The translations under genes and the position numbers were made by a program. 64,000 nucleotides of DNA, taken from assembly GCF_003790525.1 (NCBI RefSeq), contig NZ_CP033635.1; one strand, written 5' to 3'. Shown piece by piece: positions 6,434 to 24,275 of this stretch (the stretch's first letter is position 1; each line of letters starts with the position of its first letter). The notes under the pieces were generated by a model. It searched no databases and had not been told where the DNA came from. It saw only the letters and a list, made by a program, of their open reading frames with translations. This DNA is from Escherichia coli (GTDB taxonomy: Bacteria > Pseudomonadota > Gammaproteobacteria > Enterobacterales > Enterobacteriaceae).

Positions 6434-6670
6434 GTGAAGTTTATGCTCAATGCAACAGGATTGCCCTTACAAGATCTGGTGTTCGGTGCGTCCGTCTACT
6501 TTCCTCCGTTTTTCAAAGCCTTCGCGTTTGGATTCGTCATCTGGCTTGTCGTACACCGCCTGCTTCGTGGCTGGATCTACGCTGGTGACATCTGGCATCC
6601 CTTGTTAATGGATTTATCGCTGTTTGCGATTTGCGTTTGCCTTGCCCTGGCAATACTGATTGCGTGGTAA
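6434..6670 (+). CDS. ydhI: small inner-membrane protein (DUF1656), partner of YdhJK
   Basis: 78 aa ORF from GTG 6434 ([25 protein letters not shown]...), two hydrophobic segments; recognised as YdhI. Confidence 0.85.
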
Positions 6671-6672
6671 CT

Positions 6673-7530
6673 ATGTCAATTAAAACAATTAAGTATTTCT
6701 CAACAATCATTGTAGCGGTAGTTGCGGTTCTTGCCGGATGGTGGCTGTGGAATTATTACATGCAATCTCCGTGGACACGCGACGGGAAAATACGCGCAGA
6801 ACAGGTTTCTATCACCCCTCAGGTGTCGGGACGTATTGTTGAGCTGAATATAAAAGACAACCAGCTGGTTAACGCGGGGGATCTTCTGCTCACGATCGAT
6901 AAAACGCCCTTTAAGATCGCCGAGCTGAACGCACAGGCTCAGCTGGCGAAAGCGCAATCTGACCTCGCAAAAGCCAATAACGAAGCGAATCGTCGTCGTC
7001 ATCTCTCACAAAATTTTATTTCTGCCGAAGAACTCGATACCGCTAACCTCAATGTTAAAGCGATGCAGGCCAGTGTTGATGCCGCACAGGCGACGCTGAA
7101 ACAGGCACAATGGCAACTGGCGCAAACGGAAATTCGCGCCCCGGTGAGTGGATGGGTGACTAACCTCACTACCCGCATCGGCGATTACGCTGACACAGGG
7201 AAACCGCTGTTTGCCCTTGTCGACAGCCACTCGTTTTACGTCATTGGTTATTTTGAAGAAACCAAGTTGCGCCATATCCGCGAAGGTGCACCAGCACAAA
7301 TTACCCTCTATAGTGATAACAAAACGTTACAGGGTCACGTTTCCAGTATCGGTCGGGCGATTTATGATCAGAGCGTTGAAAGTGACTCAAGCCTTATTCC
7401 GGATGTGAAACCTAACGTCCCCTGGGTTCGACTCGCCCAACGCGTTCCCGTCCGCTTTGCGCTGGATAAAGTCCCAGGCGATGTCACGCTGGTGTCGGGC
7501 ACCACCTGTAGCATTGCCGTAGGTCAATAA
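6673..7530 (+). CDS. ydhJ: HlyD/AaeA-like membrane fusion protein
   Basis: ORF 6631..7530; start placed at ATG 6673 ([18 protein letters not shown]...), 285 aa; N-terminal TM then coiled coil. Confidence 0.85.
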
Positions 7531-9542
7531 TGAACGCATCGTCATGGTCCTTGCGCAATTTGCCCTGGTTCAGGGCCACGCTGGCGCAATGGCGTTATGC
7601 GTTACGCAATACCATTGCCATGTGTCTGGCGCTGACGGTTGCCTATTATTTAAATCTGGATGAACCCTATTGGGCGATGACCTCGGCTGCCGTGGTTAGC
7701 TTTCCCACCGTGGGCGGTGTCATCAGCAAAAGCCTCGGACGCATCGCTGGCAGTTTGCTCGGAGCCATTGCGGCACTGCTTCTTGCCGGACATACACTTA
7801 ATGAGCCGTGGTTTTTTCTTTTGAGCATGGCGGCGTGGCTTGGCTTTTGTACCTGGGCCTGTGCGCACTTCACGAATAATGTCGCGTATGCATTTCAACT
7901 GGCGGGCTACACGGCTGCCATCATCGCCTTTCCGATGGTTAATATTACTGAGGCCAGCCAGCTGTGGGATATCGCTCAGGCGCGCGTTTGCGAGGTGATT
8001 GTCGGTATTTTGTGCGGCGGCATGATGATGATGATCCTGCCGAGCAATTCCGATGCTACAGCCCTTTTAACCGCATTGAAAAACATGCACGCCCGATTGC
8101 TGGAACATGCCAGTTTACTCTGGCAGCCTGAAACAACCGATGCCATTCGTGCAGCACATGAAGGGGTGATTGGGCAGATACTGACCATGAATTTGCTCCG
8201 TATCCAGGCTTTCTGGAGCCACTATCGTTTTCGCCAGCAAAACGCACGCCTTAATGCGCTGCTCCACCAGCAATTACGTATGACCAGTGTCATCTCCAGC
8301 CTGCGACGTATGTTGCTCAACTGGCCCTCACCGCCAGGTGCCACACGAGAAATTCTCGAACAGCTGCTGACGGCGCTCGCCAGTTCGCAAACAGATGTTT
8401 ACACCGTCGCACGTATTATCGCCCCGCTACGCCCGACCAACGTCGCCGACTATCGGCACGTCGCCTTCTGGCAGCGACTACGTTATTTTTGCCGACTTTA
8501 TCTGCAAAGTAGTCAGGAATTACATCGTCTGCAAAGCGGTGTAGATGATCATACCAGACTCCCACGGACATCCGGCCTGGCTCGTCATACCGATAACGCC
8601 GAAGCTATGTGGAGCGGGCTGCGTACATTTTGTACGTTGATGATGATTGGCACATGGAGTATTGCTTCGCAATGGGATGCCGGTGCCAATGCATTAACGC
8701 TGGCAGCGATTAGCTGCGTACTCTACTCCGCCGTCGCAGCTCCGTTTAAGTCGTTGTCACTGCTGATGCGTACGCTGGTGTTACTTTCGCTATTCAGCTT
8801 TGTGGTCAAATTTGGCCTGATGGTCCAGATTAGCGATCTGTGGCAATTTTTACTGTTTCTCTTTCCACTGCTGGCGACGATGCAGCTTCTTAAATTGCAG
8901 ATGCCCAAATTTGCCGCACTGTGGGGGCAACTGATTGTTTTTATGGGTTCGTTTATCGCTGTCACTAATCCCCCGGTGTATGATTTTGCTGATTTTCTTA
9001 ACGATAATCTGGCAAAAATCGTTGGCGTTGCGCTGGCGTGGTTAGCGTTCGCCATTCTGCGTCCAGGATCGGATGCTCGTAAAAGTCGCCGTCATATTCG
9101 CGCGCTGCGCCGGGATTTTGTCGATCAACTAAGCCGCCATCCATCACTGAGTGAAAGCGAATTTGAATCGCTCACTTATCATCACGTCAGTCAGTTGAGT
9201 AACAGCCAGGATGCGATGGCTCGCCGTTGGTTATTACGCTGGGGTGTAGTGCTGCTGAACTGTTCTCATGTTGTCTGGCAATTGCGCGACTGGGAATCGC
9301 GTTCCGATCCGTTATCGCGAGTACGGGATAACTGTATTTCACTGTTGCGCGGAGTGATGAGTGAGCGTGGCGTTCAGCAAAAATCACTGGCGGCCACACT
9401 TGAAGAATTACAGCGAATTTGCGACAGCCTTGCCCGTCATCATCAACCTGCCGCCCGTGAGCTGGCGGCAATTGTCTGGCGGCTGTACTGCTCGCTTTCG
9501 CAACTTGAGCAAGCACCGCCGCAAGGTACGCTGGCCTCTTAA
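7530..9542 (+). CDS. ydhK: FUSC/AaeB-family efflux permease
   Basis: 670 aa polytopic membrane ORF; start overlaps ydhJ stop; recognised as YdhK. Confidence 0.88.
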
Positions 9543-10064
9543 TTACTTAATTACACCACAGGCATAGCGTTCACCGCCACCGCCCAGCGGTTTAGGTTGA
9601 TCGGACATATTATCGCCGCCAACGTGGACCATCAGTGCTTTGTCTTTGACTTCATCCAGTGATTTCAGACGAGGCGCGATGACGGCATCGGTAGCTTTGC
9701 CGTCATTATTGACGACCAGTGCAGGCAGATCGCCTAAATGCCCGGCACCTTCTGGCCCTTCATGTTTACCGGTATTTTGTGGATCAAGATGCCCGCCTGC
9801 GGATTCCGCGGCGCTGGCTTTGCCATCTTTGGTGGCTGGCTGGCAGCTTCCTTTGGCATGAATATGGAAGCCATGTTCACCGGGGGGTAATGCTTTCAGG
9901 TCGGGCGAAAACTCCAGACCTTTATCGGTTTCAGTAATGGTGACGCTACCAATTGACTGCCCAACCCCTTGCGACGTGACGAGGTTCATCTCGACTTTTT
10001 CACTGGCAGCTTGTGCGCCGGTCGCAACAACCAGCGCCAGAATGGCCAGACTAAAACGTTTCAT
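9543..10064 (-). CDS. sodC: periplasmic Cu,Zn superoxide dismutase
   Basis: ORF 9543..10115; start placed at ATG 10064 with GGAGG RBS (MKRFSLAILALVVATGAQA...), 173 aa; Cu/Zn SOD histidine motifs. Confidence 0.92.
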   Translation of the reverse strand: MKRFSLAILALVVATGAQAASEKVEMNLVTSQGVGQSIGSVTITETDKGLEFSPDLKALPPGEHGFHIHAKGSCQPATKDGKASAAESAGGHLDPQNTGKHEGPEGAGHLGDLPALVVNNDGKATDAVIAPRLKSLDEVKDKALMVHVGGDNMSDQPKPLGGGGERYACGVIK

Positions 10065-10144
10065 AGGACCTCCGTTCATTGTGCATTCCTGAATAAGTGT
10101 AAACCAGTGACACATTTTTGAACGGCGGCTATTCCTAAAAGTGC

Positions 10145-11041
10145 TTACGGTACGTCGTAACCCAATGCCGCTTTACGGATACGGAACCATTGTTGACGGG
10201 TCATTTTCAGTGTTTCAGCTTCGACAGCTGCCCGTACGCGCTCAATTTTACCTGAGCCGATAATTGGCAGCGGCTGCGACGGTAAACGTAATACCCAGGC
10301 GTAAACCACCTGTTCAATCGAGCCCGCGTTTAACTCCTCCGCCACCACAGCCAGTTCATCACGCAGCGGCTGGAAATAATCATCATTAAACAGACGACCA
10401 CCACCAAGGCAGGACCACGCCATCGGACGAACACGCAGTTGTTGCAGTTGGTCGAGCGTGCCATCCAGCAGTAACGGCTGATGCACCGGGGATATTTCCA
10501 CCTGATTAGTGGCAAGGGTAAACGGCAGGCGTGATTGCAACAGGGCAAATTGCGCGGGCGTGAAGTTGGATACGCCAAAATGGCGCACTTTGCCGCTCTG
10601 ATGCAGATGTTTAAACGCGTCCGCCACTTCATCGGCATCCATTAACGGGTCTGGTCGGTGGATTAACAGCAGATCCAGATGATCGGTCGCGAGATTAATT
10701 AGCGACTGTTCGGCGCTCTTAATGATGTGATCGCGGTCAGTGATGTAATGACCAATGACGTTTTCTTCACGCGCGGTCGTCGCGATACCGCATTTACTGA
10801 CGATTTCCATCCGTTCACGCAGGTGAGGTGCCAGTTTCAGCGCCTCGCCAAACGCCGCTTCGCACTGATAGCCACCATAAATATCAGCATGGTCCACGGT
10901 GGTCACGCCGAGATCCAGATGCTCTTCAATAAAACTGACCAGCTGGCGGGCGGACATATTCCAGTCCATCAATCGCCAGTAGCCCATCACAAAACGGGAA
11001 AACTCCGGGCCTTGCGGCGCAATAGTAATACGCTGAACCAT
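10145..11041 (-). CDS. ydhF: aldo-keto reductase family oxidoreductase
   Basis: 298 aa ORF MVQRITIAPQGPEFSRFVMGYWRL... recognised as YdhF. Confidence 0.9.
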   Translation of the reverse strand: MVQRITIAPQGPEFSRFVMGYWRLMDWNMSARQLVSFIEEHLDLGVTTVDHADIYGGYQCEAAFGEALKLAPHLRERMEIVSKCGIATTAREENVIGHYITDRDHIIKSAEQSLINLATDHLDLLLIHRPDPLMDADEVADAFKHLHQSGKVRHFGVSNFTPAQFALLQSRLPFTLATNQVEISPVHQPLLLDGTLDQLQQLRVRPMAWSCLGGGRLFNDDYFQPLRDELAVVAEELNAGSIEQVVYAWVLRLPSQPLPIIGSGKIERVRAAVEAETLKMTRQQWFRIRKAALGYDVP

Positions 11042-23249: not shown

Positions 23250-24275
23250 ATGGCAACAATAAAAGATGTAGCGAAACGAGCAAACGTTTCCACTACAACT
23301 GTGTCACACGTGATCAACAAAACACGTTTCGTCGCTGAAGAAACGCGCAACGCCGTGTGGGCAGCGATTAAAGAATTACACTACTCCCCTAGCGCGGTGG
23401 CGCGTAGCCTGAAGGTTAACCACACCAAGTCTATCGGTTTGCTGGCGACCAGCAGCGAAGCGGCCTATTTTGCCGAGATCATTGAAGCGGTTGAAAAAAA
23501 TTGCTTCCAGAAAGGTTACACCCTGATTCTGGGCAATGCGTGGAACAATCTTGAGAAACAGCGGGCTTATCTGTCGATGATGGCGCAAAAACGCGTCGAT
23601 GGTCTGCTGGTGATGTGTTCTGAGTACCCAGAGCCGTTGCTGGCGATGCTGGAAGAGTATCGCCATATCCCAATGGTGGTGATGGACTGGGGTGAAGCAA
23701 AAGCTGACTTCACCGATGCGGTCATTGATAACGCGTTCGAAGGCGGCTACATGGCCGGGCGTTATCTGATAGAACGCGGTCACCGCGAAATCGGCGTTAT
23801 CCCTGGCCCGCTGGAACGTAACACCGGCGCAGGCCGCCTTGCCGGTTTTATGAAGGCGATGGAAGAAGCGATGATCAAAGTGCCGGAAAGCTGGATTGTA
23901 CAGGGTGACTTTGAACCTGAATCCGGTTATCGCGCCATGCAGCAAATACTGTCGCAACCGCATCGCCCTACTGCCGTCTTCTGTGGTGGCGATATCATGG
24001 CAATGGGCGCACTTTGTGCTGCTGATGAAATGGGTCTGCGCGTGCCGCAGGATGTTTCGCTGATCGGTTATGATAACGTGCGCAACGCCCGCTATTTTAC
24101 GCCAGCGCTGACCACGATCCATCAGCCAAAAGATTCGCTGGGCGAAACGGCGTTCAACATGCTGTTGGATCGTATCGTCAATAAACGCGAAGAACCGCAA
24201 TCCATTGAAGTGCATCCGCGGTTGATTGAACGCCGCTCCGTGGCTGACGGCCCGTTCCGCGACTATCGTCGTTAA
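23250..24275 (+). CDS. purR: purine repressor (LacI family)
   Basis: 341 aa [36 protein letters not shown]... recognised as PurR. Confidence 0.96.
23278..23293. promoter_or_regulatory. PurR operator O2 (GAGCAAACGTTTCCAC) inside purR codons 10-15
   Basis: second pur-box core GCAAACGTTT within the purR coding start, consistent with known purR autoregulation. Confidence 0.6.

Follow-up and report, generated by a model that had tools for sequence, protein, structure and literature searches.

How two genes that converge without a single nucleotide between them end their transcripts is a question raised by the ydhK–sodC junction of Escherichia coli, here studied in a stretch of 64,000 nucleotides (nt) from contig NZ_CP033635.1 (assembly GCF_003790525.1), termed the window throughout. 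ydhK is the last gene of the ydhIJK operon and encodes an efflux pump component; sodC, on the opposite strand, encodes the periplasmic Cu,Zn superoxide dismutase (SOD), which is induced in stationary phase. The original prediction for this locus, made from the sequence letters, held that the two stop codons are directly abutted, that no room is left for a terminator, and that transcription of each gene must therefore run into the other. We consider it likely that this is an ordinary terminator-less convergent junction in which read-through is cleared by the termination factor Rho at least on the sodC side, and that the transcript overlap is a by-product of compact packing rather than a tuned switch. 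Parts of this picture were already known: the reference annotation shows the abutment, and earlier publications list the overlap and tabulate the Rho region. Our additions are small and consist of a family-wide survey of the spacer, a hairpin found in relatives that lack sodC, and copy-number variation of an 8-base-pair (bp) repeat beneath the junction.

Two stop codons without a spacer

The junction is built from the following elements, the two genes being identified by open reading frame (ORF), annotation and Pfam:

7530–9542, plus strand: ydhK coding sequence (CDS), 670 amino acids (aa), FUSC/AaeB-type inner-membrane efflux component, last gene of ydhIJK.
9543–10064, minus strand: sodC CDS, 173 aa, periplasmic Cu,Zn SOD.
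9540–9545, both strands: TAATTA, the two stops back to back, 0-nt intergenic distance.

Read from the window sequence, the TAA of ydhK (9540–9542, plus strand) adjoins the TAA of sodC (9545–9543, minus strand). Window positions 9530–9559 read gctggcctct TAA TTA cttaattacaccac, the codons around the junction (9534–9562) being ...gcc tct TAA / TTA ctt aat tac acc aca ggc..., and the ORF translation of SodC ends in ...ERYACGVIK*. The same ends are given by the RefSeq/PGAP annotation of FDAARGOS_497, whose coordinates equal those of the window (ydhK 7530–9542, sodC 9543–10064), and by strain MG1655 (ydhK 1722121–1724133, sodC 1724134–1724655), for which 1714591 is added to the window position to obtain the MG1655 coordinate. 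The abutment of the convergent stops is thereby confirmed. A single copy of the locus is found in 5425 of the 5426 complete E. coli genomes, and the spacer is 0 nt in about 98.6% of complete genomes.

By itself, the TAATTA hexamer is statistically meaningless; its weight comes from both halves being true stops of conserved genes. The chance that the abutment is only apparent, one of the stops being an annotation artefact rather than a true protein end, is practically nil. Pfam assigns YdhK to FUSC (PF04632, E = 3.8e-140, 469 bits against a gathering cut-off of 30.9, residues 20–661 of 670) and SodC to Sod_Cu (PF00080, E = 8.8e-33, 114 bits against a gathering cut-off of 28.9, residues 39–172 of 173). 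Since the domains reach to within 9 residues and 1 residue of the respective annotated ends, both stops are genuine ends, and orthologues in 66 other genomes stop at the same or nearby positions. No point in favour of an artefact was found, and we grade this reading as effectively refuted. With a spacer of zero, an mRNA can include its full stop codon only by ending inside the other gene.

Transcripts of both genes enter the opposite gene

Published strand-specific total RNA-seq of wild-type cells (Huang et al., mBio 2020, PMC7373196, Table S1c) gives sense and antisense reads per million (RPM) of 17.7 and 21.0 for ydhK and of 66.4 and 1.5 for sodC, the neighbours ydhJ and ydhF standing at 17.2 and 1.4 and at 84.7 and 2.3, respectively. 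At the read density of sodC itself, the antisense signal in ydhK would span about 165 nt, in keeping with a read-through of about 200 nt. In sodC, the antisense signal amounts to about one third of the ydhK sense density per kilobase (kb) and to about 2% of sodC sense. Double-stranded RNA (dsRNA) reads captured with p19 are present in both genes, above the level of neighbouring ydhF (PMC7373196, Table S1b). Read-through thus does occur in both directions, though unequally: it is strong where sodC transcription enters ydhK and weak in the reverse direction. What had been predicted as mutual antisense read-through holds in that antisense RNA is found in both genes, but not as a symmetrical exchange.

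Two further published data sets support overlapping transcription at the junction. One is a Rho termination region 197 nt past the sodC stop, described below; the other is the MG1655 excludome, which counts ydhK–sodC among its 165 convergent excludons, the pair being called in no fewer than 50% of 58 RNA-seq sets (Sanmartin et al., NAR 2025, PMC12288877, Table 1). By the published definition, an excludon consists of opposite-strand neighbours with overlapping transcripts. ydhK and sodC are adjacent, lie tail to tail on opposite strands and, according to the published tables, overlap in their transcripts, so that the junction formally fits this definition. The excludome entry concerns the same locus, with the overlap called from RNA-seq; Table 1 lists the pair only and is silent on the 0-nt spacer, the termination mechanism, conservation and the 8-bp repeat.

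No intrinsic terminator at the junction

As an intrinsic terminator we accepted a GC-rich stem of at least 5 bp followed immediately by a U-run and located close to a gene end. No such element, unidirectional or bidirectional, is present at ydhK–sodC. Within about 700 nt of the junction, the minus strand yielded no terminator-like hairpin with a T-run in a consensus scan; over the same distance on the plus strand the scan returned just two weak matches, at 9689 and 9980, against 2.4 expected by chance from shuffled sequence. A consensus promoter and terminator scan of 8800–10400 and 7400–9000 gave nothing relevant at the junction, and an Rfam search of 8500–10500 at E ≤ 1 yielded no family, only a chance snoRNA match. 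No curated Term-seq 3' end is listed for MG1655 1723800–1724399 (Adams et al., eLife 2021, PMC7815308), and the TERMITe supplements mention neither ydhK nor sodC.

RNA folding brought up two structures. One is a feature of the opposite CDS:

9579–9591, plus strand: weak 5-bp hairpin ACCGC-CCA-GCGGU, then UUAGGUUG; seen in the minimum free energy (MFE) and centroid folds and encoded by the conserved SodC ...KPLGGGG... codons.

This hairpin stays below the terminator criteria and could be a pause site at most. The other is an imperfect stem, ACGCUGGCC ... GGCAUAGCGU, which flanks the AT-rich junction of E. coli in MFE folds of both strands. When the junction ±50 nt was folded with RNAalifold across 21 zero-spacer species, no hairpin proved to be conserved; the stem of E. 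coli is lineage-specific and is not kept in Citrobacter or other zero-spacer species. Our own hairpin and T-run scan of 81 loci was too noisy to separate loci with sodC from loci without it and was left unused except for the recurrent weak hairpin. As to the claim that there is no room for a terminator, the zero spacer is real, but terminators inside the opposite CDS are not thereby excluded, though none that convinces was found.

Rho-dependent termination of the sodC read-through

The 3' extensions of the two transcripts are delimited as follows:

9240–9542, minus strand: sodC 3' extension, antisense through the last ~300 nt of ydhK; delimited by the C/G profile, the Rho peak at 9346 and the ydhK antisense reads.
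9543–9620, plus strand: ydhK 3' extension, antisense into the sodC 3' end and untranslated; C/G ratio of 1.56 falling to 1.05 right after the stop, with low sodC antisense reads.

A published Rho termination region at MG1655 1723937 on the minus strand corresponds to window position 9346, antisense in ydhK and 197 nt beyond the sodC stop (PMC7815308). Without bicyclomycin, 74 reads lie upstream and 14 downstream of this point; under the drug the counts are 29 and 28 (Rho score 5.10, p = 2.8e-5; PMC7815308, Supplementary file 2). Read-through of sodC transcription thus rises under bicyclomycin, as defines a Rho-dependent terminator. Between 9432 and 9240 the minus-strand RNA, which lies beyond the sodC stop and contains the Rho peak, has a C/G ratio of 1.3–1.7 in 78-nt windows; by this heuristic it would count as a C-rich, G-poor, untranslated RNA of the rut (Rho utilization) type. 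The stretch covered by sodC read-through also carries a GTG-initiated ORF of 109 aa (9187–9516, minus strand), antisense in the ydhK 3' end; there is no sign that it is a gene, though it was not looked into.

On the plus strand, a Rho termination region at MG1655 1723528 (window 8937) lies within ydhK, about 600 nt before its stop (PMC7815308), with 54 and 20 reads upstream and downstream without bicyclomycin and 382 and 449 with it (Rho score 3.17; PMC7815308, Supplementary file 2). Much ydhIJK transcription in lysogeny broth (LB) therefore stops short of the junction. Bicyclomycin also lifts the reads upstream of 8937 about 7-fold (54 to 382). This rise suggests that Rho-dependent events keep the entire ydhIJK operon down in LB. 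No plus-strand Rho region inside sodC appears in the table of PMC7815308, that at 1723528 within ydhK being the sole plus-strand entry at this locus. For the ydhK transcripts that do cross the junction, the C/G profile points to 9543–9620 as a candidate Rho loading zone.

The locus shares with the Rho-mediated suppression of antisense read-through at gene ends (PMC7815308) a bicyclomycin-sensitive region, a stretch with more C than G and the lack of a hairpin terminator. It differs in that this arrangement is documented for the sodC side alone, since Rho on the ydhK side is seen inside ydhK and not antisense in sodC.

Taken together in a model, a polymerase that leaves sodC would pass the stop codon, where the ribosomes are released, so that the RNA antisense to ydhK would be untranslated. 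About 110 nt downstream the sodC 3' RNA turns C-rich and G-poor, and Rho would terminate the polymerase about 200 nt downstream while a minority continues. Polymerases coming from ydhIJK would be stopped in part by Rho inside ydhK; the remaining ones would cross into antisense sodC at a low level and are probably ended by Rho as well. The overlapping 3' ends would form some dsRNA, which looks like a tolerated by-product. On this model the locus is a clean textbook case of Rho clearing untranslated read-through inside a neighbouring gene, with little import otherwise. Peters et al. are said to have described such Rho-dependent suppression of antisense read-through at gene ends in 2012.

The junction is tight throughout the Enterobacteriaceae

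With YdhK as query we retrieved 80 Enterobacteriaceae loci and measured the stop-to-stop distance in each. ydhK and sodC are adjacent in 67 sequences (66 of the retrieved loci plus the window), which fall into the following spacer classes:

0 nt, 22 sequences (21 loci plus the window): Escherichia, Citrobacter; the stops vary, with TAA, TGA or TAG facing TTA or CTA.
-22 nt, 19 sequences: Enterobacter, Lelliottia, Leclercia, Huaxiibacter, Silvania.
-25 nt, 2 sequences: Salmonella.
-8 nt, 15 sequences: Klebsiella, Raoultella, Kosakonia, Pseudocitrobacter, Phytobacter.
-4 nt, 1 sequence: unclassified Enterobacteriaceae metagenome-assembled genome (MAG; L029).
+2 nt, 7 sequences: Buttiauxella.
+14 nt, 1 sequence: Pseudescherichia.

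The junction is thus tight (-25 to +14 nt) in all 67 sequences, and no locus that retains sodC has a terminator-sized spacer. The tight junction is old and its exact length drifts. This drift fits a sliding of stop codons between a poorly constrained YdhK tail and a strongly conserved SodC C-terminus.

The remaining 14 loci lack sodC. In these, ydhF follows ydhK convergently, with a gap of 30–100 nt except in Escherichia albertii. Several of the ydhK–ydhF spacers contain a palindromic GC hairpin, which is clearest in Kluyvera, Trabulsiella, L073 and L077. The loci with a spacer of this length are:

30–100 nt after the ydhK stop: sodC-less loci L070, L075, L076, L078 and L083 (Kluyvera), L040 and L042 (Trabulsiella), and L077, L073, L049, L056, L064 and L071.

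Examples are AAAGGATGCAGGCGGGATTTCCGCCTGCATTT in Kluyvera and AAAAAAGCGCCCCTG...CAGGGGCGCTTTT in L077. An A-run precedes the hairpin and a T-run follows it in L070, L076 and L077, and judged by its sequence the element looks like a bidirectional intrinsic terminator. Kluyvera, Trabulsiella and the other sodC-less relatives thus share with E. coli the neighbourhood and the need to stop two converging transcripts. They differ from it in possessing a 30–100 nt spacer with a palindromic GC hairpin, E. coli having neither, and can be regarded as a natural control. In E. albertii NBRC 107761 (L007, 5011–5170), sodC was lost by internal deletion, and about 65 nt of diverged sodC 3' end, the TAATTA junction included, are left between ydhK and ydhF.

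Two database labels stood out in the survey. A contig labelled Chryseobacterium sp. 18061 (L082, CACSKA010000003.1) carries a typical enterobacterial ydhK–sodC junction of the -8 class and probably reflects contamination or mislabelling. A MAG labelled Raoultella (L014, CAAEVH010000055.1) has a junction flank identical to that of Citrobacter braakii L011, with a sodC end that differs by one base.

A variable 8-bp repeat spans both stops

The E. coli junction is embedded in a short repeat:

9539–9554, both strands: perfect tandem repeat of two 8-bp units, TTAATTAC TTAATTAC, which spans both stops and varies in copy number in E. coli.

Three copies with an 8-nt spacer are found in strain MCJCHV-1, four copies with a 16-nt spacer in SCU-387, and six copies with a 32-nt spacer in AHB7 (L003, 340–387); five copies (24 nt) are inferred for FDAARGOS_1252 from a span longer by 16 nt. 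At least three copies are present in 77 of 5423 genomes (1.4%), as judged from identity bands (at least 95% to the three-copy allele). Both proteins are unchanged in the expanded alleles because every unit carries a TAA on each strand, and the three expanded alleles whose annotation was checked (MCJCHV-1, SCU-387 and AHB7) share a single YdhK accession, WP_001538794.1. That E. coli tolerates a spacer argues against strict selection for abutment. Together with the relatives, the natural alleles of 0, 8, 16, 24 and 32 nt could serve to test whether excludon overlaps with short spacers regulate or merely follow spacing.

A duplication of the 8-bp unit was considered as the origin of the abutment and rejected: a single copy would cost sodC its stop, and Citrobacter as well as the Escherichia loci L005, L032 and L044 have a 0-nt spacer without a perfect repeat.

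Closely spaced convergent genes are common

Eleven convergent CDS pairs lie in the window, with spacers of -4 (purR–punR), 0 (ydhK–sodC), 11 (ydhS–ydhT), 39, 40, 42, 43, 46, 50, 63 and 145 nt, so that 3 of the 11 are spaced by 11 nt or less. In the genome-wide count of Huvet and Stumpf, E. coli has 663 adjacent pairs that overlap, of which 75 are convergent (PMC4161906). The two pairs of the window closest to ydhK–sodC in layout are:

24272–24275, convergent: purR–punR, 4-nt overlap, no room for a terminator.
34142–34154, convergent: ydhS–ydhT, 11-nt spacer, no room for a terminator.

Both stand alongside ydhK–sodC in the excludon list (PMC12288877, Table 1). These two and the 75 genome-wide pairs resemble ydhK–sodC in being convergent CDSs without intergenic room for a terminator; what sets ydhK–sodC apart from purR–punR and ydhS–ydhT is the spacer of exactly 0 nt and the copy-number-variable repeat beneath the junction. 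Convergent pairs without room for an intergenic terminator form a well-filled continuum in which exact abutment is a single value, and the layout is not unusual. The listing itself appears to follow largely from spacing, because the three pairs of the window with the shortest spacers are those listed.

By-product or device

Two alternatives to Rho concern how transcription stops. Intrinsic terminators could be hidden in the opposite CDSs, for instance the hairpin at 9579–9591 with its U-rich run for ydhK transcripts. This hairpin is seen in both MFE and centroid folds, and a similar GC stem plus TTTCGGTT motif stands at the same place in Citrobacter, Salmonella and Buttiauxella. Its recurrence across genera is, however, explained by protein constraint, as the SodC residues KPLGGGG are strongly conserved. 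Its 5 bp, its loop of 3 nt and its broken U-tract leave it short of the scan criteria, no Term-seq 3' end is reported for it, and the minus strand has nothing comparable; hidden terminators consequently have a marginal chance at best. Scarcely better is the prospect of collision-driven bidirectional termination, in which polymerases that meet head-on halt one another at an overlap encoding a hairpin, without Rho or canonical terminators, as proposed for ynaJ–uspE. The geometry is convergent without an intrinsic terminator, the model has been put forward for convergent pairs of E. coli in their hundreds (Wang et al., bioRxiv 10.1101/2022.10.23.513370), and the E. coli stem described above brackets the junction in folds of both strands. 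Overlapping terminators of the ynaJ–uspE type (Ju et al. 2019; Wang et al., bioRxiv 10.1101/2022.10.23.513370) indeed share with ydhK–sodC convergent transcripts that overlap at their 3' ends without a canonical terminator, but there the overlapping 3' ends are sharp, an RNA hairpin is required and termination does not depend on Rho. At ydhK–sodC, unlike at these sites, no sharp 3' ends are curated from Term-seq, Citrobacter and other zero-spacer species do not share the stem, and termination on the sodC side is bicyclomycin-sensitive. Both genes are, moreover, lowly expressed, so that collisions should be rare, and we regard this mode of termination as highly improbable here.

The remaining question is whether the overlap regulates. 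A selected excludon, in which loss of the spacer was kept so that transcription of each gene represses the other by polymerase interference and/or by RNase III acting on the paired 3' ends, would yield reciprocal expression of the YdhIJK pump and the periplasmic SOD. Several observations are in its favour: the pair is in the published convergent excludon list (PMC12288877, Table 1), the tight junction extends over roughly 15 genera, both genes yield dsRNA reads, and in ydhK the antisense signal equals or exceeds the sense signal. The two sides also obey different regulators. sodC belongs to the sigma-S regulon (PMC2685091); ydhIJK is sigma-E-induced in E. coli and, in S. Typhimurium, is repressed by SlyA, derepressed by salicylate and confers tolerance to fusaric acid (PMC6401476). 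Other observations speak against selection. In an rnc-14 (RNase III) mutant the sodC mRNA is essentially unchanged (1.08-fold), the dsRNA reads being modest (PMC7373196). Entropy at four-fold degenerate sites in aligned orthologues (80 of ydhK, 65 of sodC) is 1.45–1.60 in the final 75 codons of ydhK (gene mean 1.45) and 1.27 in the final 25 codons of sodC (1.27–1.74 among bins); neither 3' end is under extra synonymous-site constraint, and therefore no hidden conserved RNA element is evident in either region. The overlap drifts freely among genera (-25, -22, -8, -4, 0, +2, +14), inserts of 8–32 nt are tolerated in E. coli, in several genera sodC was lost and a hairpin simply stands between ydhK and ydhF, antisense across sodC is a small fraction of sense, and at a 0-nt spacer the ExcludonFinder criterion is satisfied almost automatically. 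We therefore hold a selected excludon to be unlikely. Its most elaborate form would be a family-wide device in which polymerases from sigma-S-driven sodC transcription, by continuing 200 nt to more than 1 kb into ydhK, shut down the SlyA- and sigma-E-controlled YdhIJK in cis, pump induction damps periplasmic SOD, and the 8-bp repeat tunes the overlap; this we consider very unlikely. The evidence leans towards the overlap having no regulatory consequence at this pair.

Some points nevertheless weigh against the interpretation as a Rho-cleared by-product of packing. A published 22-bp RNase III/p19 dsRNA lies at window 8360–8381, 1.16 kb inside ydhK, so that part of the antisense RNA must reach, or begin, well past the zone of about 200 nt. 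The Rho data stem from one condition (LB, optical density 0.5) with low read counts and 800-nt windows, so that the termination point is approximate. Excludon pairs, taken as a class, are reported to show more synteny and less co-expression in single cells, and the family-wide tightness could reflect selection rather than inertia. With regard to the distant antisense RNA, a promoter scan predicted no sigma-70-like antisense promoter within ydhK. About 250 nt beyond the dsRNA site, the minus strand has a terminator-like hairpin with an 8-bp stem and a TTTTT tail (8110–8087).

Neighbouring genes and exceptional E. coli alleles

Upstream of ydhK, the ydhIJK operon comprises two further genes:

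6434–6670, plus strand: ydhI, DUF1656.
6673–7530, plus strand: ydhJ, HlyD-type adaptor.

Two E. coli genomes depart from the usual arrangement around the junction. In GDSC2227PM (H105, NZ_CP135595.1 near 2185308) the match is limited to the sodC side of the junction (query 56–97), and the ydhK 3' end appears disrupted or replaced. In OkiPb01698 (L004, 444–500) the sodC 3' region has a 42-bp in-frame deletion between CGCCGCC-like direct repeats, which takes out part of the conserved C-terminal glycine-rich segment; the gene (480 nt) is still annotated as sodC.

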